IMG/VR virus record: IMGVR_UViG_3300047462_000311
Reading direction: 5' to 3' (one strand)
Length of the DNA: 59,143 nucleotides
Origin: a virus
The first letter of the stretch is position 1. Each line of letters begins with the position of its first letter. This document shows, one piece after another, positions 465 to 41,780 of this stretch. Under the pieces are notes generated by a model that ran no database searches, was not told the DNA's origin, and saw only the letters and a list, made by a program, of their open reading frames with translations. Made by a program: the position numbers and the translations under genes.

Positions 465-539
465 AGGGGAGTCGTCCAACGGCTAGGACTCCGGCCTCCA
501 AAACCGGCTATGGGGGTTCAAATCCCTCCTCCCCTGCCA
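465..539 (+). tRNA. tRNA-Trp (anticodon CCA), CCA end encoded
   Basis: Manual cloverleaf: acceptor AGGGGAG/CTCCCCT, D arm GTCC/GGAC, anticodon arm CCGGC-CTCCAAA-ACCGG, T arm GGGGG-TTCAAAT-CCCTC, G73. Closely resembles bacterial tRNA-Trp (A1-U72, G73). Confidence 0.9.
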
Positions 540-3518: not shown

Positions 3519-3787
3519 GAGTCAAGAGTTTTGAAGTGTCCAAGATGAAAAGCAACAAAGGGTATGCGTACAAGGTGGTCGTGCATCACCACGACAAGCC
3601 GCCAGCCACCGGAAAGGGCATGAAGGGGCTCTTGGCTCCCACGTATGTGCCGCCGGAGGAGCATGCGCATATGACGCGGGCGGCGCTCCACAAGCACATC
3701 AACGATTTAACGAACTCGATGTGCGTGTCGCCGAACGGTGACGACAACGAGGGCGAGAAGTACCCGGAAAAGAGCGACGAATACTAA
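3515..3787 (+). CDS. Hypothetical His-rich protein (90 aa)
   Basis: AAGGAG 8 nt upstream of the ATG. ATGA overlap with the previous ORF. Confidence 0.55.
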   Translation: MRVKSFEVSKMKSNKGYAYKVVVHHHDKPPATGKGMKGLLAPTYVPPEEHAHMTRAALHKHINDLTNSMCVSPNGDDNEGEKYPEKSDEY

Positions 3788-3791
3788 GAGC

Positions 3792-5957
3792 ATGGCTGAC
3801 ACCATATCCACAGTCGCCGGTTCCGACATCAAGGTCGACGACCATAGCTCGGAGATACTCGAACAGCGCCGCGCGAGCGAGCGCTACATGATGAATAACT
3901 ATTATCAGGAATGGACAGAAATCTACCGGAACATGAAGGCTCGTGTCGAGCCGATCATGCGGAAAAACGAAAAAGGCGAAGAAGTCGAGGATAAGAGCCG
4001 GTCGAACATCTGCCTTCCTGATCACCATGTTATGGTGCGGCGCGGAACGGCGCGGCTAACGCGCAATTCGCCCAATCTGCGCTTGCGCGGCAAGGACCCG
4101 ATAGCGGCGGACAAAGCCGCCGCCCAGCTCATGTATCAGTGGGACAGGAGCGAGTCGCAAGCGCAATTCCGCCGCATTGTGCGGTGCTGCAAGGCTTTGG
4201 GTATTGGCTGGGGAAAGAACTATTACGACCGCGTGCAGGTCATTCGGCGTTTCCGCAGGCTGACGCAGACGCTCACGCGGGAAGAGCTGATGGCGCATCA
4301 GGGCGCTCCGGACGATGAGATCGCCGATGCCATAAGGCAGCTAGGGCCCAATCTGACGCAGGCGGAAATCACTCAGGCAACCAGCGAGTACGGTGACCAG
4401 ATAACGCTCGGAGTGCCTGTCACGCGCTACAGCGGACCGGTGTTGTCTTACGTATTTGCCGGCGACATTTTTGCCGAACCGGGCTTTTACTCCGGCAATC
4501 AGTCCGCGTACATCATCGAGAATAGCATTCGTGACGAAGAATGGCTGGAATACTGGACGCGGCAAGAGAGCATCGATCCCGAGACTGGACAGAAGTCTCC
4601 GGTAATTGATCCGGCAAAGGCGCAAGAGCTCCTGGATATGTGCGGAGACCGCAATTATTTGGATCAAAAGTCGATCAGCCTGCGGCGCATGATGCGCGAA
4701 GCGGTTTCCGTTGCCGATCCTTTGAGTGCGGGCAAGCCTATTCGCCCGCCGCGCAAGCGCTTCATGGTGGATGAGCGGCACACCATCGTGGACGGGCGCT
4801 TGTGCATTGAGTATGTCGGCGAAGAGTCTCTGTACCTCGGAAGGCAATGGTATCCGTGGGACACATACGGAAAATACATTTACACCGATATGGTGCTGAT
4901 CCCCGATCTTTTCGAGGGCATTGGTGATTCCACGCCGAGAATCACGCGTTTCCTTATGCAGCTTCGGAACTCCCGCGCGAATCAGACAACGGACTTCATC
5001 AATAACAAGTTGCTGCCATTGATCAAGGTGCTTGAGGGCACAAACCTAACCGACGATGATTTGGTCAGAACAGGATTCGGGAGGCTTCTCTATCTGAAGA
5101 ACCTGGGGGAAATTGACTTCCTGCAAGACCCTGTCTTTCCAGCGGAAGCGTTTCAGGATCAGGCCCAATGGACGCGGGAAATGCAACAAGCTGATCCTTC
5201 GGTTGCCGATTTCGCTCCCGGAACCGAAGCCATGCCGCAGCCGGGCAAGCTGGCAACAAGCCTGATTCTTCAGAAGCAATCCGGCGATGACGTTCTCGCC
5301 GACGAACTCAATGAGATAGGCCAGTTTATCCGTTCGGTAATGGAGATTTGGCTGGCCTTCAACCAGCAGGCGATGGAGGATGCGCTAGAGATTCAAAAGG
5401 GCGACTCGCCGCGAATCGATCAGATTATCGAAGCCATCAGCGAACGAACGCAGGGCGGAAACCCCAAAGTAATACGCATCGATCCGATGGACATTCAGCA
5501 GGAGTTCGAGATTCTTCCAGAGGAAGGCTCGACGCTCGCCGATGATGATCAGTATAAAGTACAGAAATTGCAGCAGGGATTCATGCTGGCCGCGCAGAAT
5601 CCCGACGTGCTGAACAAGCGCGTATTTGCCGCGCCACTGGCGAAGGCGATAGGGGTGGACCCGGAGGCGGCGATTCTTCCTCCGTCTCCGCCAGCGCCCC
5701 CGGTAAAGATCGGATTCAATGTTACGGCAAAGTTCGAGGATTTGTCTCCCGATGTGCAAGCAGCCATTTTGCAGAGTGTGGGCTTGCCCTCCGAGGGGCA
5801 AGCCATGTTATCGCTTGTCCGGCATGGAAGCCAGGCTGTCCAGCATGTGGGAGCCGCCGCTGATGCCGCTGCGACCTTGGCCGAACCGGCGCATGAACCT
5901 AAAACCATTGTGCCGCCCGGAATGAAAAATGCCGAGAAAAACAAACCTGGAATCTGA
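3792..5957 (+). CDS. Portal protein
   Basis: 721 aa, the first large ORF after terL. Start set to ATG 3792, just after the preceding stop. Called on size and position; no diagnostic motif verified. Confidence 0.75.
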   Translation: MADTISTVAGSDIKVDDHSSEILEQRRASERYMMNNYYQEWTEIYRNMKARVEPIMRKNEKGEEVEDKSRSNICLPDHHVMVRRGTARLTRNSPNLRLRGKDPIAADKAAAQLMYQWDRSESQAQFRRIVRCCKALGIGWGKNYYDRVQVIRRFRRLTQTLTREELMAHQGAPDDEIADAIRQLGPNLTQAEITQATSEYGDQITLGVPVTRYSGPVLSYVFAGDIFAEPGFYSGNQSAYIIENSIRDEEWLEYWTRQESIDPETGQKSPVIDPAKAQELLDMCGDRNYLDQKSISLRRMMREAVSVADPLSAGKPIRPPRKRFMVDERHTIVDGRLCIEYVGEESLYLGRQWYPWDTYGKYIYTDMVLIPDLFEGIGDSTPRITRFLMQLRNSRANQTTDFINNKLLPLIKVLEGTNLTDDDLVRTGFGRLLYLKNLGEIDFLQDPVFPAEAFQDQAQWTREMQQADPSVADFAPGTEAMPQPGKLATSLILQKQSGDDVLADELNEIGQFIRSVMEIWLAFNQQAMEDALEIQKGDSPRIDQIIEAISERTQGGNPKVIRIDPMDIQQEFEILPEEGSTLADDDQYKVQKLQQGFMLAAQNPDVLNKRVFAAPLAKAIGVDPEAAILPPSPPAPPVKIGFNVTAKFEDLSPDVQAAILQSVGLPSEGQAMLSLVRHGSQAVQHVGAAADAAATLAEPAHEPKTIVPPGMKNAEKNKPGI

Positions 5958-6171
5958 AGATCGCAGGCAATTGCTGCTGATGCTGGATAACAGCGCATTG
6001 ATGGCATCGTTTCGCAAATTGCTTCTGGAAGAAGCCGCCTTCTGGCAAACGCATCTTCAAAACGAATCGCTTCAGCAATCGCCAAACACGAATCTAATGA
6101 TCCAGTACGCGGCCAAGGCATCAGCCGTTGCCAGCATGGAAGCCATAATCCGGTCGGCAGCGGGACTATGA
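5929..6171 (+). CDS. Hypothetical protein (80 aa), first gene of the inserted modification operon
   Basis: Overlaps the portal 3' end by 29 nt and forms an ATGA junction with the next gene. Confidence 0.45.
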   Translation: MPRKTNLESEDRRQLLLMLDNSALMASFRKLLLEEAAFWQTHLQNESLQQSPNTNLMIQYAAKASAVASMEAIIRSAAGL

Positions 6172-7166
6172 GGATCGCTGTTTTTTATCCAAAAGACAGA
6201 AGCGCGGCATGGAGCATGGGCGGCGGTTTGCCGGCGACATTGCGCAGGATGGGGCATGCTGTGACGGATGGGGCAATTCGCCCTGGCGCCGGGAGCGCCG
6301 CCGATATAGAAGCGGCTCGCGTCACGATGCCAGCCCTTGAACATCTGCGGTCTATGGACGCCATTCTCATCAGCGGGCCGGAACACTTGATTCCGTGGCT
6401 CGATGAGATATACGGAAAATACGAGTGGAAACAACTGCAAGCAAGGAAAGCGGCATGGCTGCACGAATCGCTTTTCCGAGAGGATTACAGCATTCAGTTC
6501 GACCAGATACAGCCCTGGGCCGACGAATACTTTTTCCCCGCAGTACAGGATGCGGAGTTTTGCGACCAAGAAAGTTTCGCCAAGGGGCATTCGCACTGGC
6601 TCCCGTTTGGCGTGGACACGGAAGTATTCAAGCCGGACGGGTTTGAGAAGAAAGAATGGCCCGTAGCATTCATTGGCGGAATCTATGAGAAACGCGCACG
6701 ATTCCTGCGGGCGCTCAGCAGGCATGCCATACCGCCGATACGCATAGGCGGAGTGATGATTGATGTAATGGGATTCCAGGCGCTCGAATCCGCCAAGCGC
6801 CTGGCCGATTGCTACCGGAGAACTAGCGTGTTTTTCAATTTGCCGGCGCTGTCGCAATGCCTGGTTTCCAAGGTTTACGAAGTGATGGCCTGCGGAACGT
6901 TCTTGCTCACGCCGATGCTGAGCGCGGACAGGGGCGTGGCTAAAAACCAAGCTGCGTTCACCAGCGGGCACCACCTTGTGTACTACCGGTCAAGCAATTT
7001 GCCGTATGTCGCGCAGCTTTTGCGGGAATGGTCCAGCGAAGAAAAATCGGCGGAAAGAGAAATGATTGCCGCTAGTGGATGCCGGGAAGCGCACGCGAAT
7101 CATAGCCTGGAGAACCGGCTGAAAGTGATTATGGAGAAACTTGCCATACCCGTGGCTGTTCAATGA
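6168..7166 (+). CDS. CgeB-like glycosyltransferase (GT-B, Glyco_trans_1_2-like C-terminal domain)
   Basis: The C-terminal half (VAFIGGIYEKRARFL, SKVYEVMACGTFLLTP, HLVYYRS, ENRL) matches my memory of CgeB/DUF3880-type glycosyltransferases. Confidence 0.6.
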   Translation: MRIAVFYPKDRSAAWSMGGGLPATLRRMGHAVTDGAIRPGAGSAADIEAARVTMPALEHLRSMDAILISGPEHLIPWLDEIYGKYEWKQLQARKAAWLHESLFREDYSIQFDQIQPWADEYFFPAVQDAEFCDQESFAKGHSHWLPFGVDTEVFKPDGFEKKEWPVAFIGGIYEKRARFLRALSRHAIPPIRIGGVMIDVMGFQALESAKRLADCYRRTSVFFNLPALSQCLVSKVYEVMACGTFLLTPMLSADRGVAKNQAAFTSGHHLVYYRSSNLPYVAQLLREWSSEEKSAEREMIAASGCREAHANHSLENRLKVIMEKLAIPVAVQ

Positions 7167-8209
7167 TGGAACGCTATTCAGAACTGCGAGTGCTGCGATG
7201 GTATGACCGGATACAAGCGAGCCTTCAGCCGGAAGGGGATGCGCCGGGACCGATACGCGCGAACCTTGACTTGACGAATTTATGCTCGCATGCCTGCCCG
7301 TGGTGCGAACCTTTGGATTTCCGAAAAGCTACAATCGCCGGAAACCGGCACACCTTGCCCAAAGACATTGCGGAAGGCGTGCTATCCGATCTGCGCGAGA
7401 TGGATTGCAGGCTTATAAATTTTTCCGGCGGCGGAGAACCCACGCTGCACAGGGATTTCGGACCGCTTCTCGAAACAGCCCATCGCCACGGCTTTAGAAC
7501 AAACGTGATTACTCATGGCGGTTTCATCGACCGCTGGACCGATTATCTGGTGGATTGCGCGGATCACATTCGCGTATCGCTAGATTCTTCATGCGATGCG
7601 GAGCACCGGCAGATGCACGGAAGCAAATCGGGAGAATTCAGGCGCGTTGTCGGGAATATCCGTTCGCTTGTGAAAGCTCGCGGCGATAAGCGGAGCCCTG
7701 AAATCGGAATTGCCTACATCGTTGCCGACTGTAACAGGACCTACTACAGCATTCTGCCGTTCTTGGAAATGGCCCAGGAATGCGGAGTGGATTTTGTGCA
7801 TTTCCGCCCCGTTTCGGAGCAGACAAGGCAGTTCATGCACGGCGACTGGAATGCCGCCTCCGCGCTGATAGCGCATGTTGCAAAGAAGTTCCCGAGACTG
7901 GACGTACGCATTCTCGGAAAGCGCGGAAACGATGTTTTCACGCAGCGCGAGTTTGATAAGTGCTACGCGGCCTACACCCTTGCCGTGATTGGGGCGAACG
8001 GGGATGTTTCCGCATGCTGTGACCAGCGCACCATTGTATTCGGCAGCGTGCATGAAAAGAGATTCCGCGATATTTGGCAATCGCAAGAACACCGAAAAAA
8101 GGCGGCGGCCATAGTTCCAAGACTTTGCCGCATCTGCCTGATGTGCGACTACAACCGCGCCGTAAGGAAATATGTTGTCGGAAACGAAGCCCTGCCGGAG
8201 ATGTTGTAG
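7163..8209 (+). CDS. Radical SAM enzyme with Cys-rich SPASM/twitch-like C-terminal region
   Basis: Canonical CX3CX2C (CSHACPWC), a GGGEPTL SAM-binding motif, and C-terminal ACCDQ..GSV..IW..CRICLMC. Confidence 0.85.
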   Translation: MMERYSELRVLRWYDRIQASLQPEGDAPGPIRANLDLTNLCSHACPWCEPLDFRKATIAGNRHTLPKDIAEGVLSDLREMDCRLINFSGGGEPTLHRDFGPLLETAHRHGFRTNVITHGGFIDRWTDYLVDCADHIRVSLDSSCDAEHRQMHGSKSGEFRRVVGNIRSLVKARGDKRSPEIGIAYIVADCNRTYYSILPFLEMAQECGVDFVHFRPVSEQTRQFMHGDWNAASALIAHVAKKFPRLDVRILGKRGNDVFTQREFDKCYAAYTLAVIGANGDVSACCDQRTIVFGSVHEKRFRDIWQSQEHRKKAAAIVPRLCRICLMCDYNRAVRKYVVGNEALPEML

Positions 8210-8620
8210 ATGGAAATGAATATCGGAGAAGTGCTTGATAGGTACACCATAGAGGCGCGAAAGGTTCTCTATGGCCACGGCGACGAGGAAATCCTGCGGC
8301 AAATTGAACAAGAGCTTCGCAACCGATTCGGGAACATCCCTGCGGAGTTGTTCCTTGCCGGAGCGCGGCTAGGACTCGCAAACTCGGCGATTGCCGAACT
8401 GGAATGGCAGATACGCGCCGGGCAAGACTTAAGCCTTGAAGAGATTGGGCGCCGCGCCAAGGCAATCCGCGTTTTGAACGGAAAACGAGTCGATGCCAAA
8501 AACTGGGCAGGCCTGGTTTTTGACGGAAAACCAGCCGTGATAGCCCATTATGGCAAGGGAGACGATCTTCCCGCCGCCAAGCTTACGTTCGACATGCAGG
8601 AGCCGCGATGCGCGAGATGA
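8210..8620 (+). CDS. Hypothetical helical protein (136 aa), possibly DUF4254-like
   Basis: The start directly abuts the rSAM stop (TAGATG). The segment NSAIAELEWQIRAG..EEIGRRAKAIRVLNGKRVDAKN is reminiscent of small proteins that accompany sugar-modification loci. Unverified. Confidence 0.5.
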   Translation: MEMNIGEVLDRYTIEARKVLYGHGDEEILRQIEQELRNRFGNIPAELFLAGARLGLANSAIAELEWQIRAGQDLSLEEIGRRAKAIRVLNGKRVDAKNWAGLVFDGKPAVIAHYGKGDDLPAAKLTFDMQEPRCAR

Positions 8621-9216
8621 AGATTCGCAGCGCGGCGGAAGGCGCCAGATATCACCGCGACGTCGGCCCGCGCATATATTCCGATTGTCCGGTTCAGAGG
8701 CCGCGCATCGAACGATCCCGCGAATTTGTTGCGAAGGCGCTTGGGCACCTAAGTCCGGGATCGCGCATTGTAGAACTCGGCTGCGGAACCGCCGACATTA
8801 CGGGGCCATTTTCTGAAAAAGGGTGGATCGTTACAGGAATCGAATGCAACGAAAAATCCGTTGCCATAGCGCGAGAACGATTCCCCAAAATGTTTTTGTA
8901 CAACGAGGAAATCGGATCGATTCGCATTGCCCCAGCCGATCTCGTTGTGATGTGTGAGGTTCTGGAGCATTTGGCCGACCCTAAAGCAGAAGTCCGGCAT
9001 TGGCTTGGCATAGCCAATGCCGCCGTGATTTCCCATCCTATCGATGAACCATTGGATTCCGAGCTCTCTGCGGGAGAGCATCAGTGGAGCTTCAGCGAGC
9101 ATGACCTTGAAGAATGGTTTGAATTGGGCGGCATGAAGCTGAAAGAACAACTGATATTCCCAATGGGGAGCTACAGGATAGGCCTAGCTTATGGAGTCCG
9201 TGAGGTAAGTACATGA
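8608..9216 (+). CDS. Class I SAM-dependent methyltransferase
   Basis: Motif I VELGCGTADIT, an acidic residue after beta-2 (IE), and motif VVMCEVLEHLADP. Confidence 0.85.
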   Translation: MREMKIRSAAEGARYHRDVGPRIYSDCPVQRPRIERSREFVAKALGHLSPGSRIVELGCGTADITGPFSEKGWIVTGIECNEKSVAIARERFPKMFLYNEEIGSIRIAPADLVVMCEVLEHLADPKAEVRHWLGIANAAVISHPIDEPLDSELSAGEHQWSFSEHDLEEWFELGGMKLKEQLIFPMGSYRIGLAYGVREVST

Positions 9217-9713
9217 CAAACAGAAAAAAGGCGATTGCTTTGGCGTTCGCGGTTCCGCTCCTGGCAATCCTGATCATTGCCCTGTGCGGCATGGCCGAAA
9301 ACACAGTCGCGCAAAATCAGCCAGCCTCTATCACCGATCCATGCTTTTCGCAATTCACCGCGAAATCCAGCGTGCCCATAAACGCCACTACGGCGACAAC
9401 GACACAGCTTGTTGCCCCGGCAGCGGGAAAGGCCGTATTCGTGTGCGGAGCTTCACTGACAATTGCTCCGTCGTCCACTTCAGCGGATACGGCACAATTT
9501 ATCAGCGGAACCGGACCGACTTGCGGCACCAACACGGTTACGAATACAGGCACATTCGGCAATGGCGATCTAACAACGGCAGCGCCGCCGCTGTTCATCT
9601 CATTTGCCGATCCCGGATCAACCTTTAGCTCGGCGGTTGGCGCGGGGGTCTGCCTGGTAAGCGCGGGGACTACGGTAAACATTCAAGGCGTACTTACTTA
9701 CGTCCAGCAGTAA
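9213..9713 (+). CDS. Secreted or membrane-anchored Thr/Gly-rich protein (166 aa)
   Basis: ATGA overlap with the methyltransferase. N-terminal KK + AIALAFAVPLLAILIIAL hydrophobic core and TVA-Q cleavage-like site. Confidence 0.65.
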   Translation: MTNRKKAIALAFAVPLLAILIIALCGMAENTVAQNQPASITDPCFSQFTAKSSVPINATTATTTQLVAPAAGKAVFVCGASLTIAPSSTSADTAQFISGTGPTCGTNTVTNTGTFGNGDLTTAAPPLFISFADPGSTFSSAVGAGVCLVSAGTTVNIQGVLTYVQQ

Positions 9714-9736
9714 AAACAGTTTAGGAGGATAGTCAC

Positions 9737-10231
9737 ATGAAGAAGTTTCTTTCAGCGGCACGAAATGGATTTGCTGGCTTCGGTGTTCTGGCCATGCTTG
9801 TCCTTCTGGCAGTGAGCTTATTCGCGCAAGGGACGCCATTTGGAAATGGCAGGGGAGCTTTCCGCGGCGATGTATACGTTCCCTCGGTATTCAATCTCTG
9901 GTTCGGCGACAACTCTTCGAGCGATGTTGCGCTTGCAAAGAACGGCAGCAACGTCGTCGGAATCAGCGGGAATCTCGGCGGAAAGGGGGCCACGGCGAAT
10001 ACCACGACTTCGCCAGCCGGACCCTTCTCGTGGGGAACAGTGGCGCTATCGTCAAACACCGCCACCGTGACGTTCAACAAGCCTTTCCAAAATACGCCAG
10101 TGTGCGTTGTGACGGATGTAACAACGCCACAATTGGTCAAGGCGGCTCCCACGCCCACCACCGTTGTGATTACAGATACCGTTGGCGCAACGGATACAGT
10201 GCAGTACATCTGCGTCGGCAATCCCAATTAA
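9737..10231 (+). CDS. Secreted protein (164 aa)
   Basis: AGGAGG 8 nt upstream. Signal-like GFGVLAMLVLLAVSLFA-QG. Beta-rich, Thr-rich mature part. Confidence 0.65.
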   Translation: MKKFLSAARNGFAGFGVLAMLVLLAVSLFAQGTPFGNGRGAFRGDVYVPSVFNLWFGDNSSSDVALAKNGSNVVGISGNLGGKGATANTTTSPAGPFSWGTVALSSNTATVTFNKPFQNTPVCVVTDVTTPQLVKAAPTPTTVVITDTVGATDTVQYICVGNPN

Positions 10232-10312: not shown

Positions 10313-10387
10313 CGCGGGATGGAGTAACTGGAAACTCGGAAGGCCCATGACCTTCAAATTCAGGTTCAAATCCTGATCCCGCCACCA
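10313..10387 (+). tRNA. Initiator-like tRNA with CAU anticodon (tRNA-fMet-like, atypical anticodon loop)
   Basis: 75-nt cloverleaf: CGCGGGA-TG-GAGT..ACTC-G-GAAGG-CCCATGA-CCTTC-AAAT-TCAGG-TTCAAAT-CCTGA-TCCCGCC-A-CCA. The 5' CGCGGGNUGGAG and the 1:72 mismatch recall bacterial tRNA-fMet. Confidence 0.75.
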
Positions 10388-10434: not shown

Positions 10435-11676
10435 ATGAATCTACAAGCGACGAGCGAAGTGGATAGATCAAACGAGGAGGCGATAGTCAGAGCCGTCCTC
10501 GGACAAAGCGCTGAGACAGAAGCACCCGAGGCCACAGAAGCAGAGGAGCCAAATCGGGAAGCAGAAGTTCCAGTAGCCGAAGAGGAAAGCAGTGCGGATC
10601 CGGCGGAAGAAATAGCGGAAGCATCCGACGAGGAAGTGCCCGCAAGCGAGCCGGAAGAACAGGCGGAAGAAGCAGAGCCAACAGAGGCAGCAGAGGAAGA
10701 AGAGGGCGAGTTTGCTCTTCAGGAGACTGACCGCGACTATTCCGATGCTGCTTACGCACGCGCCGCACAGCATTACTCCAAAACGCACAAAGTCCAGTTA
10801 GACCCGCAAGACCCCGCACACCGAGCCATGCTCAAAGAGATCATGGATCGCGGCGAGGCGCTGAAACGCCAGGCAGAAGAGCGCAAGGCAATGGAGCAAA
10901 AGGCCGACGAGGCCAAGGCTTCCGACGAGGAAAAGCCGGTCCAAGCGCATGCGCCGACGCCAGAACAGTTTCAAGCCTATCTCAACCAGATTGGTGAAAT
11001 CGCCAAGAGGCGCGTGAATCCCGCAGTAGCGATGCACGTGTCCAACAGAATCGTCAAGGCATTGTGGCCCGACTTTAAGGGAAATATTTCCCAGGAGCAG
11101 GCAAATGATTTGACTTCGGCGTTTCACGAGATGTTCATGCTGGCCTTGGATGATGCCGCACCGATGGTTCTCGGCATGGTCAACAACAATCTGGCCAGTG
11201 ATCCAGTCTGGGGAAGGACGCGCACCGAGGCAATCCGAGCAAATGCTTTCGAGCACCTGGAAAGCCTGAAGGATGCCACCGGAGAAATGCGCTATCCAGA
11301 CCTCGAGCAGATGGTTGAGAGCGGTCGCCTTAAAAAGGTCATGGCGGCGAATCCTTGGATCAGCGCAGTTAAATCTGGGAAGGGCAACGACCCTGTTCTT
11401 GATTATGCCGCGCAGATCGAGGTTGCCTACAAGATCGCCAAAGGCGAACAAGTAAATCCAGATGTCGTGCGGAAAGCAGTGGAAACTGGAAGAAAACAGG
11501 CAGCGGAGACCGCCAAGAAAGTCGCGGCTTCGCGCGTGGCTCCCGGAAAACCAAAAGGCGGATTTAGCGGACCGGTCAATGAGGCTGAAAAAATAATCGG
11601 CCAAATCACGAGAGGGCCCGGAACCAAGAGTAACTTCTCGGAAGCCGTAAAACAGCAGCTCATGAGAAGGCGTTAA
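10435..11676 (+). CDS. Scaffolding protein (putative)
   Basis: Highly acidic E/A/P-rich N-terminal region, coiled-coil-like middle, basic C-terminus. Lies immediately upstream of the major capsid gene. Confidence 0.65.
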   Translation: MNLQATSEVDRSNEEAIVRAVLGQSAETEAPEATEAEEPNREAEVPVAEEESSADPAEEIAEASDEEVPASEPEEQAEEAEPTEAAEEEEGEFALQETDRDYSDAAYARAAQHYSKTHKVQLDPQDPAHRAMLKEIMDRGEALKRQAEERKAMEQKADEAKASDEEKPVQAHAPTPEQFQAYLNQIGEIAKRRVNPAVAMHVSNRIVKALWPDFKGNISQEQANDLTSAFHEMFMLALDDAAPMVLGMVNNNLASDPVWGRTRTEAIRANAFEHLESLKDATGEMRYPDLEQMVESGRLKKVMAANPWISAVKSGKGNDPVLDYAAQIEVAYKIAKGEQVNPDVVRKAVETGRKQAAETAKKVAASRVAPGKPKGGFSGPVNEAEKIIGQITRGPGTKSNFSEAVKQQLMRRR

Positions 11677-11709: not shown

Positions 11710-12924
11710 ATGGCCATTAACACCGTGCCAAGGTCAGTAGACCAGGCAATTCAAGAAACAGTACAACAGCGAGTATTTTTCGGGGAAAGAGATATTCTCT
11801 TCAACCCGAATCTCACTCCGATTCTGACCTTAGTGACAAAGATCGGTAATCGGAAAAAAACAACGGCATCAACCCGCGTGGAATGGATCGAAGACGACTA
11901 CGTGGGGTACTGGGGCCAGGCAAACAACACGACCGACTACAGCTCGGTTGCCACGTCCATCACGGTTGTCGATGGAACCCTGTTTGCTTATGGCGACCTG
12001 GTTGCCATTCCCAAGGCTCCTGCCAGCTCGGCGGCGGAAGAAATTGCCCGCGTAACCGCCGTCGCTGGCAATACAGTAACCCTGACTCGCGGCATTGGCG
12101 GCGCTGGAGCGGACACTATCGGGGCATCTTCCGATATCCGCATTCTTGCATCGGCATATGCCGAAGGCGATTCTTTTGGAACGGTGCGCTCAACGAGTAA
12201 GTCAGTGAAAATCAGTTATACACAGATTTTCCGGCGTCCTGTTCAGCTCACCAAATCAATGGTCGCCCAAGCGCAATTCGGACCGTCGAATGAGCGAATT
12301 TTTCAGCGCCAGAAGGGGCTGGAGGAAATTCGCCGCCAAATGGAGCAAGCAGCTCTGTTTTCCAGGCCTTCGGAGTCATTGGCTCTTGGCGCTCCCGGAA
12401 CGGTTCGCACGACGATGGGAATCAAATCCCGAATCGTGACCAACGTTTACAACGCGAACACAACGCTGACCGAAGGCGGACTGGAAAGCTTCGCGGAAAT
12501 GGCCTTCTCCACCTACTTCCAGGGAAACGAGAAGCTCCTGGTTGCATCCAAGAGAGTAATCTCCGCATTCGACTACTTTGCCCTCGGCCATCAGCGCACC
12601 GAACAATCCGAGGAAATTTACGGAGTGAAAGTGCGCAGGTATGTGACTTCACACGGAGAGTTCCTCATCTCACGAGACCTGTTGCTTGACAACGGTCCGG
12701 TGAGCGGTAACGGTCCTGGACATGAAGCCTATGCAATTGACGTGGATTCAATCGAATTCGCTCCACTTGTCGGCAACGGTGAGAACCGCGACACGCATTT
12801 GCTGACCGATGTAATCAAGGACGGCAGCGACAAATACTCGGATGAATACCTGTGCGAGGGCGCATGGGTAATTCGCTTCGAGCAGCGCCACGCCCGTCTG
12901 TGCAATGTCAACGGTTACAACTGA
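11710..12924 (+). CDS. Major capsid protein (HK97 fold, SU10/DUF5309-like)
   Basis: 404 aa. RVEWIEDDY near the N-terminus resembles the SU10-type MCP family. Follows the scaffold gene and is followed by a strong terminator hairpin. Confidence 0.8.
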   Translation: MAINTVPRSVDQAIQETVQQRVFFGERDILFNPNLTPILTLVTKIGNRKKTTASTRVEWIEDDYVGYWGQANNTTDYSSVATSITVVDGTLFAYGDLVAIPKAPASSAAEEIARVTAVAGNTVTLTRGIGGAGADTIGASSDIRILASAYAEGDSFGTVRSTSKSVKISYTQIFRRPVQLTKSMVAQAQFGPSNERIFQRQKGLEEIRRQMEQAALFSRPSESLALGAPGTVRTTMGIKSRIVTNVYNANTTLTEGGLESFAEMAFSTYFQGNEKLLVASKRVISAFDYFALGHQRTEQSEEIYGVKVRRYVTSHGEFLISRDLLLDNGPVSGNGPGHEAYAIDVDSIEFAPLVGNGENRDTHLLTDVIKDGSDKYSDEYLCEGAWVIRFEQRHARLCNVNGYN

Positions 12925-13712: not shown

Positions 13713-14015
13713 ATGACGTTGAATATTTACGGGATAGCCTACAGGAACACGCCGAAAGGCACCTTTGGGCCGCCGCAGTTTCAGCGGATCGCCGCAGGGT
13801 CCTCCGAAGAAGCCGCGTCCTTCTTTGGCGAAGATGTATTCATCGAATCCATCTCGAACATTTGCAGCGATGTTCTGATTCCCGACTCAGCGGAAACAGC
13901 GGTACTGAAGAATGAATTGGAAGAGGCAAAGAAGCAGGTTGCCGAACTCAATGCGGAACTTTCCGCGATGAAGTCATCGCCAGCGCCAGAATCATCGGAA
14001 ATATGGCCGTCGTAG
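13713..14015 (+). CDS. Hypothetical protein (100 aa)
   Basis: Co-directional ORF with a coiled-coil-like segment LKNELEEAKKQVAELNAEL. Confidence 0.5.
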   Translation: MTLNIYGIAYRNTPKGTFGPPQFQRIAAGSSEEAASFFGEDVFIESISNICSDVLIPDSAETAVLKNELEEAKKQVAELNAELSAMKSSPAPESSEIWPS

Positions 14016-14947
14016 ATATCGTAATACCAACACAGCGCGGAATCGAACACGAAACCAACAGCAATCTCTCGCTGATGATCCGCGATACGCAATGTTTTTG
14101 CGGGACGCATGAGGCATGGAAATGCCCCAAGGGCCGCCACAGCGTGCGGCTGCTTCCTGTAACCAGCGGAACGGTTGTTCATTGGGCCAGAAATCAAGCC
14201 ATCACGATGGCGCTCTATGGCCAGGTTGATGATGGAAGGCCTCCGGCGGAATTTCTTTTCCTTATGGATGACGACATGCTATGCCAGCCGTGGCACCTCA
14301 ACCGGCTGCTTAGTTATCGCAAGGACATTGTGACCGGAATCGCTACAGTGCGCCGCGATCCGCCACGGCCCAATATCCGCATGTGGGATGCCGAGAAAGA
14401 GCACTTCATCACGCCCGTGGAATGGGATTGGGACACCAACAAGCTGATCGAGATTGATGCCGTTGGAGCGGCGTATCTGCTTGTCAAGCGAAGCGTGTTG
14501 GAGGAGATGGCCGCAGCGTATCTCAACTGTCATTTTGAGCGGCTGGTTGACAAGAGAAAATTTCCCAACTGCCAGGAAATCGATGCCTACTGGAACAAGA
14601 AGGCTGAACGCCGCCGCGCCCGCTTCGAGGCCGCTACGTCAGAAGGGGGCGATTGGAAAGAAGCCGATGGCCAGTGGTTTCAATTCCTAGATAACATCGC
14701 AGACTCTCAGGCAACCGAACTCGGAGAGGACATAAGTTTTTGCTGGAAGGCGAAAATGCTTGGATTCAGAATTTTTGCCGATCCGCAAGTCTTGCCCGGG
14801 CATATAGGAAAATATGCTTATTCGATCATCGACTACCGAGACTGGGTGGAGAGCGGCAAGGACTGCGGGGCACTCCCCGAAACCATGCCGGCAAATGCGG
14901 TGCAGTTGAACCCGGAGGCCCATGTGGACAGTTCAGCAAATCGTTGA
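14003..14947 (+). CDS. GT-A fold glycosyltransferase (family-2-like)
   Basis: DxD-type FLMDDDM, followed by GEDISFCWKAKMLGFRIFADPQVLPGHIG, which is typical of phage and bacterial GT-A enzymes. Confidence 0.7.
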   Translation: MAVVDIVIPTQRGIEHETNSNLSLMIRDTQCFCGTHEAWKCPKGRHSVRLLPVTSGTVVHWARNQAITMALYGQVDDGRPPAEFLFLMDDDMLCQPWHLNRLLSYRKDIVTGIATVRRDPPRPNIRMWDAEKEHFITPVEWDWDTNKLIEIDAVGAAYLLVKRSVLEEMAAAYLNCHFERLVDKRKFPNCQEIDAYWNKKAERRRARFEAATSEGGDWKEADGQWFQFLDNIADSQATELGEDISFCWKAKMLGFRIFADPQVLPGHIGKYAYSIIDYRDWVESGKDCGALPETMPANAVQLNPEAHVDSSANR

Positions 14948-15638
14948 AGAGGTCTCGAAGAGGACGGAGCGCCGCGCGGACCAGAAAATCAACTTGCGCA
15001 TGGAATTCTTCCTTGGTTTGGATGAATTCGTTAGCGAGCAGCATTTCTGGTGGAGAAAGAAGCGCGGAACGTTTCAAACAGTCATCGGCGCAAATATGTA
15101 TGACCTTTCCATGTCGGCGGCTTCTGGAACGATACAGCCGGGCGGCGGGATCAGTGATTTCGCGCAGTTTGACGAAATAATCCTTCTAAATGCCGATGGG
15201 ATTACCAAGCAGCTTGAGATCGTTCCCATTCTCGACCCAGTGGGGCAACTGGTGGCGATCAAGAACACGGTTCAGGATGTTCCCGCAGCATTTTTCATCG
15301 ACCCCCAGATTTCTCCAACCACCGTTGTCTTTCAAGCTCCTGCCAGCGTCGCTCAAACCGTTCTTTACACTTATTGGGCCGTGCCACAAATCTCGGAGCC
15401 GGACGAGGACACCATCCCTATGGTGCCGAGTTACCTGCACTGGGGATTGGTGTACATGCTTGAGCGCCGCGTCTATGAATTTCTGTATGGCGAGGACGAT
15501 CCGCGATTCACCGTTGCGAATTCGCGCTATATGGAATTCTGCCAAAAAGCGGCAAGAATGCCGCATTGGACGGCGAAGCGCGTGCAAGAGATGCGTGCGT
15601 CGAGCCACAGCGTAAAAACAGTTCAGGCACATAATTAG
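14922..15638 (+). CDS. Putative head-tail adaptor / virion structural protein (238 aa)
   Basis: Position between the capsid module and the large tail protein. No diagnostic motif. Confidence 0.4.
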   Translation: MWTVQQIVEEVSKRTERRADQKINLRMEFFLGLDEFVSEQHFWWRKKRGTFQTVIGANMYDLSMSAASGTIQPGGGISDFAQFDEIILLNADGITKQLEIVPILDPVGQLVAIKNTVQDVPAAFFIDPQISPTTVVFQAPASVAQTVLYTYWAVPQISEPDEDTIPMVPSYLHWGLVYMLERRVYEFLYGEDDPRFTVANSRYMEFCQKAARMPHWTAKRVQEMRASSHSVKTVQAHN

Positions 15639-40498: not shown

Positions 40499-40610
40499 AT
40501 GCGTCATGGCGTCCCATCCCCTCTTGCCTCTGCCCGATGAGGACTCTTCCGGCTCATCTGCTACAATTGCCGCCGAGGCAATCGAGTCATCAGCCCAAAA
40601 GGGGGGTTCG

Positions 40611-41780
40611 ATGGCTCAAAGGCGTTTTCAAAGAGGCACAGTTTTTCTGCGAGGAAAGAATCCAGTATGGGTTGGCCGATACCTGGAGGATGTAATTCTG
40701 CCGGGTTCTCCCAACCCTGTCCGCGTGCGAAAGTCGGTGGTTCTGGGCACCAAAAGAGAGTATCCAACCAAGCGCCTGGCACAGCGCCGGATGGAAGTTA
40801 TTCTCGCCAGGATCAACGATTACTCCTATCGTCCCGGAAGGGTAGCCACGGTCGAGCAGTTCGCCGAAAGGTGGATGGCGCAAGTCGTTTCCAAGCTGAA
40901 GTCCTCCACCGCGCACGGCTACGCAGCGCATTTGAAAAACCAGATCGTTCCGCTTCTCGGCAAGTTGCGGCTTGACCAATTGGGAGTGGAAAACCAGCAA
41001 GTCTTTGTCACGCAGATTGCCGGCAAGGTCTCGCGGACGACCACAAAGAACATCCTTGCCACGCTGTCATCCATGCTTGGCACAGCCAAGAATTGGGGAT
41101 ATGCCTGCGAAACCGTTCATCTCAACCGGCTTGTCTTTCCAGAGCGAGGGGTGCGGCAGCGACGAACGGGTTTTTCTCCTAGCCAGGCGGCCCAGATCAT
41201 CGCGACGGCCCAGGGGCAATACCGGGTGATGTTTGCTCTTGCGGCAATGACTGGCCTGCGCGTAGGAGAAATACTAGGCCTACAAACCTCGGATTTCGAC
41301 TTCGAGCGCCGGATTTTTCATGTGCGCCGTTCGGTCTGGCGCGGCAAGCTACAAACCCCTAAGAGCACCAGCAGCGAATCTTCCCTTCCCCTCCCTGACG
41401 CCTTGGCAGCGATCGTGCACGAGTACATCGCCACGATACGGCCAGGGTTCCTTTTCCTCAACAATCGCGGCAGTCTCTTCATTGCCGAAAATGTCGTGCG
41501 CCAGCAACTCGTGCCAATCCTGCGTGCGCTCGGCATCCCGATAATCCCACGCCAAACTAGCTTCCACGCCTTCAGGCATCTGCATACCAGCATGCTGCTG
41601 GCGGCGGGAGCACCCGCATCCGTGGCCCAGGCACAACTGCGTCATGCCGATCCGCGCGTAACCCTTGGCATTTATGGGCATGTCATTGGCGACGAGCAGC
41701 GGCAAGCCGTGGAAAAAGTAGCGGCGATTCTTGTCCCAACTTGTCCCAAACAGAAGCCGGTCGGCGAATGGATTCAATGA
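40611..41780 (+). CDS. int: Tyrosine integrase
   Basis: AAGGGGGG before ATG 40611. C-terminal catalytic signature GLRVGE..HAFRHLH..LRHADPRVTLGIYGH (R-H-R-Y type). Confidence 0.9.
   Translation: MAQRRFQRGTVFLRGKNPVWVGRYLEDVILPGSPNPVRVRKSVVLGTKREYPTKRLAQRRMEVILARINDYSYRPGRVATVEQFAERWMAQVVSKLKSSTAHGYAAHLKNQIVPLLGKLRLDQLGVENQQVFVTQIAGKVSRTTTKNILATLSSMLGTAKNWGYACETVHLNRLVFPERGVRQRRTGFSPSQAAQIIATAQGQYRVMFALAAMTGLRVGEILGLQTSDFDFERRIFHVRRSVWRGKLQTPKSTSSESSLPLPDALAAIVHEYIATIRPGFLFLNNRGSLFIAENVVRQQLVPILRALGIPIIPRQTSFHAFRHLHTSMLLAAGAPASVAQAQLRHADPRVTLGIYGHVIGDEQRQAVEKVAAILVPTCPKQKPVGEWIQ
41731..41750 (+). repeat. Tandem TTGTCCCAA(C/A) x2 inside the integrase 3' end
   Basis: ttgtcccaac ttgtcccaaa read directly. 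The same TGTCCCA core recurs at 41894..41913. Confidence 0.8.

Follow-up and report, generated by a model that had tools for sequence, protein, structure and literature searches.

The subject of this analysis is a stretch of 59,143 nucleotides (hereafter the window, meaning the whole stretch), the IMG/VR record IMGVR_UViG_3300047462_000311, which derives from an uncultured SU10-like phage of soil whose identical genome was assembled from several metagenomes. Seven genes at 5929-10231, in the head module, include those of a glycosyltransferase (GT) and of a radical S-adenosylmethionine (SAM) enzyme. Our best explanation, to which we give a probability of about 0.5, is that they form a glycan tailoring-and-transfer cassette of the late operon, and that this cassette is a fixed part of the SU10-like head module. 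It is probable that a sugar pathway of some kind is encoded here; that its acceptor is a virion protein is a tentative proposal, a little short of an even chance. More tentative again is the general form of the idea, in which an unrecognised phage family of twitch-type radical SAM enzymes tailors sugars for phage GTs and decorates the virion with a radical-derived sugar (keto, deoxy, branched or methylated), here and independently in other capsid-adjacent lineages. A sugar is the best-supported substrate because the enzyme resembles DesII and BlsE, because its family lies among glycan genes, and because some relatives are fused to GTs or cytidylyltransferases.

Layout of the cassette and its enzymes

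The seven open reading frames (ORFs) are co-directional on the + strand and overlap or abut one another, as a first reading made from the letters alone (the sequence-only reading) had described with exact coordinates. The junctions measure −29 nt to the upstream 739-aa gene, then −4, −4, 0, −13, −4 and +23 nt. A second GT gene lies further downstream.

5929..6171, + strand: 80-aa protein, no assigned function, between the putative portal gene and the GT gene in 13/13 relatives (jackhmmer; alignment)
6168..7166, + strand: predicted soluble GT-B glycosyltransferase of the CgeB / Glyco_trans_1_2 type, GT4-like fold (PF13524, E 4.5e-14)
7163..8209, + strand: radical SAM enzyme with a Cys-rich twitch/SPASM-like C-terminal domain, DesII/BlsE-like (PF04055 and PF13186)
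8210..8620, + strand: 136-aa protein, accessory, confined to this phage family and present in some relatives only
8608..9216, + strand: class I SAM-dependent methyltransferase, accessory (PF13489, PF08242, PF08241, PF13649), present in some relatives only
9213..9713, + strand: 166-aa Ser/Thr-rich protein (S+T 23%), accessory, exported or membrane-anchored to judge from a hydrophobic N-terminal segment (Kyte-Doolittle peak of 2.93, residue 7)
9737..10231, + strand: 164-aa protein, accessory, with a signal-like segment near the N-terminus (Kyte-Doolittle peak of 2.50, residue 12) and its own AGGAGG ribosome-binding site
14003..14947, + strand: second glycosyltransferase, GT-A fold (Anp1/GT2-like), assigned from the Pfam matches of its homologues, immediately upstream of the SU10-type adaptor gene

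The core of the cassette is the pair formed by the radical SAM and GT genes, which are translationally coupled, always adjacent, and always placed with the putative portal gene on one side and the putative scaffold gene on the other. GC content stays even along this region. Three sigma-70-like sites were detected in 3.4-12 kb, all on the minus strand, and no promoter-like site was found there on the + strand. For every cassette enzyme the Kyte-Doolittle maximum (19-residue mean) is below 1.3, so that the enzymes appear soluble. The precomputed Pfam annotation used here covers 1-18.2 kb and 38.6-59.1 kb of the window (~40 kb), the large tail-type ORFs of 18-38 kb lying outside it; within this scope, and using hydropathy in addition, no flippase, polymerase or priming transferase was found, nor were nucleotide-sugar synthesis genes present in the annotation.

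In a hidden Markov model search, PF13524, PF04055, PF13186 and class I methyltransferase models all scored above their Pfam curated cut-offs, and every enzyme identity proposed from the sequence alone proved correct, including that of the second, GT-A enzyme. For the GT at 6168-7166, the PF13524 score was 53 bits for a cut-off of 25. Its AlphaFold2 model (mean predicted local distance difference test, pLDDT, 96.2) has the two domains of a GT-B enzyme, and a Foldseek search of the PDB with this model returned GT4 retaining enzymes first (ManT 7qsg, HepE, BshA, GlgM, MshA and PimA, template modelling (TM) scores 0.60-0.68), the best 40 neighbours being all of the GT4 type. Residues E72, D128, D150, R176, K235 and E238 are invariant or nearly so in 60 homologues; such conserved acidic and basic residues are typical of a donor site. 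By sequence and model, the protein is a predicted glycosyltransferase of the GT-B, PF13524, GT4-like kind.

Outside the phage clade, the nearest homologues of this GT are bacterial (36-41% identity over the full length), one of them from a metagenome-assembled genome (MAG) of Terriglobales. In one bacterial locus studied in detail, the gene stands between motA/motB and fliC/fliD/fliS, together with other GT genes and an epimerase gene. Among 52 related metagenome loci, 5 had flagellin and ~12 had flagellin or MotA/B within the DNA fetched; the radical SAM gene was absent from these bacterial flagellar loci. This context points to cytoplasmic protein O-glycosylation as the probable ancestral setting of the GT. 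FlmG-type enzymes, which combine tetratricopeptide repeats (TPR) with a GT-B transferase, perform cytoplasmic flagellin O-glycosylation (PMC7591256). The phage enzyme resembles those of flagellin O-glycosylation islands in being a soluble GT-B protein that would act before assembly, in having its cellular homologues there, and in that some homologues bear N-terminal TPR repeats; it differs in lacking a TPR domain itself, and the bacterial loci differ in lacking a radical SAM gene. Since the locus checked for one TPR-fused homologue was not flagellar, the analogy with FlmG stays a lead.

The radical SAM enzyme scored 49 bits with PF04055 (E 1e-12, cut-off 29.5) and 41.7 bits with PF13186 (E 1.4e-10, cut-off 21.5). 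The motifs C41-x3-C45-x2-C48 and G89-G90-G91-E92-P93 (GGGEP) are invariant, and the AlphaFold2 model (pLDDT 94.1) shows an alternating beta/alpha core and an N-terminal extension made of a single helix. Sequence and predicted fold together place it in the radical SAM superfamily (PF04055). Across the wide family of its relatives, the invariant features are CX3CX2C, GGGEP, a motif in the N-terminal helix, and the cysteines C267, C285, C322 and C325; G280 is also kept family-wide, and C286 and C328 are found only in the SU10-like subfamily. A full SPASM domain has seven cysteines, in the order CX9-15GX4C ... CX2CX5CX3C ... C, which ligate two auxiliary [4Fe-4S] clusters. Despite the PF13186 score, the second motif of the phage enzyme reads CX2CX2C and not CX2CX5CX3C. 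With this motif and only four C-terminal cysteines kept family-wide, a twitch-like domain holding one cluster fits better.

DesII is a TDP-4-amino-4,6-dideoxy-D-glucose deaminase/dehydrogenase and BlsE a cytosylglucuronate decarboxylase, both from antibiotic sugar pathways; in each case the hydrogen is abstracted from a sugar that a nucleotide or nucleoside bears. They were the best PDB sequence matches of the phage enzyme (E 4.5e-7 for DesII and 8.9e-4 for BlsE, followed by PqqE) and also its best structural matches (Foldseek E 2e-15 and TM 0.70-0.72 for DesII, TM 0.65-0.69 for BlsE, followed by SuiB, SkfB, PqqE, viperin-like enzymes and anSME). CX3CX2C and GGEP motifs are common to both sides, BlsE being reported to carry them (PMC3715490). 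Unlike DesII and BlsE, the phage enzyme has its four family-invariant C-terminal cysteines, which imply an auxiliary cluster; and unlike in the DesII pathway, neither a 4,6-dehydratase nor a DesI aminotransferase gene is found in the annotated parts of the window, nor is the cytosylglucuronate pathway of BlsE; the window is viral and not part of actinomycete secondary metabolism. An orthologue of DesII or BlsE was rejected on account of these missing partner genes, of an identity to DesII of 18-20%, and of a score of 26 bits with the BlsE model TIGR04466 (cut-off 400). The likeness to DesII and BlsE, as judged from sequence and model, is one of fold and chemistry class only.

Every curated NCBIfam radical SAM model scored far below its cut-off, the best being the tungsten-cofactor oxidoreductase maturase (E 7.8e-23, 81 bits vs 380) and PqqE (E 7e-15, 55 vs 381). 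The sequence-only reading had considered that a match to a housekeeping family such as QueE or a ribonucleotide reductase activase would count against it. QueE was rejected (TIGR03365, 25.9 bits vs 206; the QueE-like phrog_2076 only reached 8.6e-6), and no activase family was among the best 25 matches listed. A structural search of BFVD returned only uncharacterised viral radical SAM proteins.

For the GT-A enzyme at 14003-14947, the Pfam matches of the protein itself were below threshold (GT2 E 0.12, Anp1 E 0.03). The representative library contains 1,951 of its relatives, and among 46 that were scanned, Anp1 (GT62) was matched by 20/46, GT2 by 11/46 and Glyco_tranf_2_3 by 4/46; overlaps between these counts being unresolved, at least 20 match GT-A families. 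Some relatives are fused to sugar O-methyltransferase domains. A DxD motif (D89-D90-D91, within LMDDDM) and the pair E242-D243 of a GEDxxFC motif are conserved. Aligning the family by hhalign with a small ad hoc GT2 alignment gave no match, nor did a PDB profile search. The matches of the homologues to GT-A families and the conserved motifs support the assignment, which the sequence-only reading had already made. In related phages, the gene is kept at the same position with 47-68% identity.

Conservation in related phages and the wider radical SAM family

About 50 homologues of the radical SAM enzyme (43-62% identity) and ~90 of the GT (43-63%) were found, mostly on contigs of 58-62 kb. We compared 13 distinct related contigs, and the order putative portal, small protein, GT, radical SAM was found in 13/13. 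Identities to the window were 47-61% for the GT and 45-60% for the radical SAM enzyme, and, in the same contigs, 45-72% for the putative portal and 42-72% for the putative portal and the large terminase subunit (TerL) taken together. As this divergence keeps pace with that of the putative portal and TerL, the core of small protein, GT and radical SAM enzyme appears ancestral and vertically inherited. When IMG/VR was sampled by means of the major capsid protein (MCP), only carriers of the cassette were recovered, and no close relative without it. The GT and radical SAM genes were thus present together in every relative found, and the absence from related phages that the sequence-only reading had named as a sign against its proposal was not observed.

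The genes 3′ of the radical SAM gene are variable. Relatives have either the 136-aa protein and the methyltransferase, or the methyltransferase and a homologue of the 164-aa protein, or the 136-aa protein and a deoxyhypusine-synthase (DS)-like gene (PF01916), or all three, or the DS-like gene alone. We conclude that variable cargo is carried at the 3′ end of the operon. Homologues of the 166-aa protein were found in 2 relatives only, and those of the 164-aa protein only in two contigs (L001 and L095). Of the sequence-only reading, the central idea of glycan tailoring with a radical-modified or methylated sugar stands as the best fit, given the DesII/BlsE likeness, the GT contexts and the fusions. 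Its description of the operon as inserted between portal and scaffold is misleading, the core being ancestral to the whole phage family while only the downstream genes vary. Its alternative, in which the two downstream secreted proteins would be the substrates of a protein-modification system, is disfavoured because these proteins are missing from most relatives that keep the GT and the radical SAM enzyme.

None of the 80-aa, 136-aa, 166-aa and 164-aa products has a family match in Pfam, PHROGs or NCBIfam. The 80-aa protein is conserved over its full length, contains neither Cys nor an invariant Ser/Thr, and shows no leader/core pattern. For the 136-aa protein, which gave nothing in Pfam even at E up to 10, only 8 homologues were found among 5.8 billion proteins, none of them annotated; its conserved motifs are LxELLDRYxIExRK and KLGxxNxxIAxxEWQxR. 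A suspected link to DUF4254 went undetected by Pfam and was dropped.

The DS-like gene, absent from the window, lies 3′ of the radical SAM gene at 11194-12273 in L006, 11143-12225 in L009, 11066-12151 in L010 and 13459-14526 in L011, and also occurs in L016-L018. Its product could be an aminobutyl/polyamine transferase acting on a glycan, a protein lysine or DNA, or could make polyamines for packaging. An analogy with the modification of EF-P/eIF5A (GT-B enzyme EarP, radical SAM enzyme EpmB, deoxyhypusine synthase) was rejected, since the phage radical SAM enzyme falls outside the lysine-aminomutase type and a DS gene is lacking in the window.

Beyond the SU10-like phages, a profile scan found at least 179 IMG/VR stretches encoding full-length relatives of the radical SAM enzyme (23-31% identity). 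In 75 loci, a GT gene was present within 5 kb in 65/75 and a split transketolase in 54/75; these counts are not independent, as ~51 of the 75 loci belong to one lineage. In this sipho-type lineage (~50 contigs), portal, MCP and GT2 genes are accompanied by a radical SAM gene lying between two transketolase halves, an arrangement which suggests that a two-carbon branched-chain sugar is made on a keto-sugar intermediate. In one such contig (L036), the halves of the split transketolase/E1-like thiamine diphosphate enzyme, at 7471-7992 and 9077-9691, flank the radical SAM gene, and the GT2 gene comes directly after the capsid gene.

Further gene orders, independent of this one, were MCP, radical SAM, GT, PhyH, methyltransferase, NodB, GT in podophage MW202801; C5 DNA methylase, GT2-like, radical SAM, PF13524 GT, GT2, capsid fusion in L028; and GT2, radical SAM, GT8, GT47 in L049. 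A 135-kb phage unrelated to the window (L030) has a long series consisting of GT1, GT2, methyltransferase, two PF13524 GTs, radical SAM, methyltransferase, ATP-grasp, two 4,6-dehydratase/epimerase genes, methyltransferase, GT2 and methyltransferase; the class I methyltransferase directly 3′ of its radical SAM gene was identified by Pfam and also by a profile search seeded with methyltransferases. The same glycan-biosynthesis operon contains a TnpB/Cas12f-like gene (PF07282) at 4118-5263. In a jumbo phage (L040, 6805-9982; contig of 199 kb), a 434-aa radical SAM protein with a long N-terminal extension is encoded between two TET-associated GTs (PF20691), followed by an FkbM methyltransferase, and homology clustering gave the same gene order in L055 (261 kb). 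These two are candidates for a radical-SAM-tailored DNA glycan.

Fusions were found as well. Wolbachia phage WO (MN180251.1; L012, 6687-9023) encodes one 778-aa protein annotated as a group 1 GT fused to a moaA/nifB/pqqE-family radical SAM enzyme, a natural fusion of both core activities, and its gene adjoins genes for a UDP-glucose dehydrogenase, an epimerase/dehydratase and a GlmU-like protein. In bacteria, relatives are fused to cytidylyltransferases of the SpsF type; one of these (P0065) is encoded in a cluster together with GTs, methyltransferases and an ABC transporter.

A possible pathway, its rivals and known systems

In the glycan cassette that we favour, the radical SAM enzyme would abstract a hydrogen from a sugar, either a nucleotide sugar supplied by the host or a sugar already attached. 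Its single four-Cys auxiliary cluster would serve as an electron sink, and the product may be a keto or deoxy sugar, as with BtrN and DesII. The GT-B enzyme would transfer the sugar so made, the class I methyltransferase, where present, would methylate it, and the GT-A enzyme at 14003-14947 may add or prime another sugar. The likeliest acceptor would be a virion protein (capsid or connector) that is produced in the cytoplasm simultaneously, comparable to the mycobacteriophage capsid and to cytoplasmic flagellin O-glycosylation.

Several observations weigh against this proposal. As no sugar-activation gene is annotated in the window, the host must supply the nucleotide sugar from which the donor is made. 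The flagellar setting of the cellular GT homologues traces to one closely related bacterial lineage and does not amount to independent observations. The SPASM domain and the next-best structural matches, SuiB, SkfB and PqqE, are of the peptide maturase kind. The radical SAM family is not tied to protein acceptors, given the TET-associated, DNA-type GTs that flank it in jumbo phages. Position in the head module is weakened as evidence for the acceptor by the DNA methyltransferases and the tRNA found there (see below), which show that the module takes up non-structural cargo. Lastly, both acceptor and virion chemistry are predicted here from the genes of an uncultured phage.

Instead of the virion, the cassette could modify host surface glycoconjugates or host proteins (flagellin, pilin), the exported proteins included, leading to a serotype change similar to lysogenic conversion or to superinfection exclusion. 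An integrase is encoded at 40506-41780 and the phage is possibly temperate, two exported or membrane-anchored proteins are co-transcribed with the enzymes, the nearest cellular homologues of the GT belong to flagellar glycosylation loci, and the Wolbachia WO fusion lies in a non-structural sugar cluster. We nevertheless consider such a role unlikely: the genes belong to the late head operon, where they overlap the putative portal gene, are not near the integrase, and have no promoter-like site of their own; the exported proteins are missing in most relatives that have the GT and the radical SAM enzyme; the enzymes appear soluble, and the precomputed annotation holds no flippase or lipid-carrier enzyme; and unrelated phages place similar cassettes beside capsid genes.

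Less probable than a role at the host envelope is hypermodification of the phage DNA, where the GTs would glycosylate a modified base before packaging and the radical SAM enzyme and methyltransferase would tailor the sugar. The cassette resembles phage DNA-glycan clusters (10.1101/2023.12.21.572611 and PMC13326640) in having several phage GTs and sugar-tailoring enzymes with a late action, and known DNA glycosylation does act late, before packaging (PMC13326640, abstract). The routes described there depend on hydroxylation of the base, through either a thymidylate synthase homologue or an enzyme of the 5mYOX/TET kind; the window gave no sign of such an enzyme: its six frames had no thymidylate synthase signature and the precomputed annotation had no ThyS, 5mYOX or TET Pfam family, and no phage DNA polymerase. 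The T4 beta-GT is also absent from the best 50 structural matches of the GT model, which are all of the GT4 type. On the other hand, the jumbo-phage relatives lie between two PF20691 TET-associated GTs, with an FkbM methyltransferase gene next to them; the pooled genes that flank distant viral relatives of the radical SAM enzyme included a C5 DNA methylase and a 5-hydroxymethyldeoxyuridine (5-hmdU) DNA kinase domain, one of each; DNA methyltransferase genes stand beside the putative portal gene in relatives of the phage; and the DS-like gene could be a parallel to the polyamine transferase of a DNA-glycan cluster (10.1101/2023.12.21.572611). Neither of the two DNA-glycan papers (10.1101/2023.12.21.572611, PMC13326640) mentions the term radical SAM.

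The least probable alternative in our opinion is that of a peptide or protein maturase, acting on the 80-aa protein, the capsid or the secreted proteins, with the GT glycosylating the same polypeptide to give a glycosylated product, cross-linked or similar to a ribosomally synthesised and post-translationally modified peptide (RiPP). Most SPASM enzymes are peptide or protein maturases. The PF13186 domain, the identity of the best NCBIfam matches, the SuiB, SkfB and PqqE structures that come next as neighbours, and the small conserved ORF always found 5′ of the GT-radical SAM pair would all agree with such a role. The maturase class was rejected since the NCBIfam scores given above fall far below their cut-offs, the N-terminal extension is a single helix and no RiPP recognition element (RRE)/PqqD-like domain is present, and the 80-aa neighbour is devoid of Cys and of a leader/core pattern. 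Moreover, DesII and BlsE outrank the maturases in both sequence and fold, and what accompanies the family in genomes is sugar enzymes rather than peptides.

BtrN acts on an aminocyclitol, in which it oxidises a secondary alcohol. Like BtrN and anSME, both among its structural matches, the phage enzyme combines a radical SAM core with a Cys-rich C-terminal auxiliary-cluster domain; these two, however, rank below DesII and BlsE (anSME E 6e-10, BtrN E 1e-7, TM 0.41-0.57). Phage virion glycosylation is known from few cultured systems, in which it alters immune recognition and probably particle stability. GTs encoded by mycobacteriophages glycosylate the virion, capsid and tail-tube subunits being the acceptors reported (Freeman et al. 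2023, as cited in PMC12619734). From what that source relates, the present cassette has in common with them phage-encoded soluble GTs in or near the structural genes; it differs in its radical SAM partner, for which no equivalent was found in the literature on that system, and in its lineage, an SU10-like podophage of soil bacteria known from genes alone.

The full-text literature yielded no paper that links a radical SAM enzyme to the glycosylation of phage virions, or to phage GTs of the CgeB type; a cyanophage paper lists a radical SAM 'maturase' adjoining sugar-type genes as an 'antibiotic synthesis gene', an example of the present interpretation of these genes. Phage GTs and sugar-tailoring radical SAM enzymes are known kinds, and what is new is their conserved pairing within the head module of a phage, together with how broad the viral radical SAM family is. 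If the proposal is true, radical chemistry would add a new layer to virion glycosylation, and this would be the first virion glycosylation pathway dependent on a radical SAM enzyme, in the form of a compact two-to-four-gene system for unusual sugars. The widespread and unstudied radical SAM family, present on well over a hundred viral contigs, would then be a marker gene for such cassettes. Many phage proteins annotated as 'MoaA/NifB/PqqE family' or 'Fe-S oxidoreductase' are probably sugar-tailoring enzymes, rather than cofactor or peptide maturases.

Flanking genes and other observations

The genes that surround the cassette, and the integrase gene, are the following.

1060-2703: TerL (phrog_2)
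3738..5957, + strand: putative portal, 739 aa, placed after TerL and before scaffold and MCP (45-73% identity in relatives)
10313-10387, + strand: tRNA-Met (CAT) with an encoded CCA end (ARAGORN; Rfam RF00005, 50.6 bits)
10435..11676, + strand: putative scaffold, 413-aa acidic protein (net charge −27), directly upstream of the MCP gene
11710..12924, + strand: major capsid protein of the SU10 type (PF17236 SU10_MCP, precomputed annotation; phrog_1328; PDB matches to a VP1 major capsid protein and to the SU10 head protein)
14922-15638: SU10-type adaptor (precomputed Pfam, PHROGs and PDB matches)
40506-41780, + strand: tyrosine integrase (PF00589, precomputed annotation)

For the putative portal and the putative scaffold, no homologue was detected in Pfam, PHROGs, the PDB (phmmer and profile search) or cultured phages (tblastn); these names are given by position and size only, homologues being undetectable. 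The cassette has no nucleotide match among 50,697 cultured-phage records, and the GT, the putative portal and the GT-A enzyme gave no tblastn match in these records. A scan of GTDB genomes for prophages carrying the radical SAM gene yielded no close relative. The only hints as to the host are that one of the GT homologues comes from a Terriglobales MAG and that the contigs were obtained from soil and peat. It is from the integrase gene that the phage is judged possibly temperate. In one metagenome contig of 359 kb (L095), the initial 20 kb belong to a relative; this may be a case of a prophage or of chimeric assembly.

The tRNA-Met gene, which the sequence-only reading had missed, occupies part of the 203 nt that separate the cassette from the scaffold gene, and its presence suggests a site of cargo or insertion. 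In three relatives, an N6/N4 DNA methyltransferase gene (PF01555) lies between the TerL and putative portal genes (L006, 4925-6139; L009, 5559-6266; L011, 5053-6291). A second tRNA gene of the window, tRNA-Trp (CCA) at 465-539 (+), stands immediately 5′ of TerL and overlaps the mechanically called ORF 411-1235, which because of this overlap is probably not a gene as listed.

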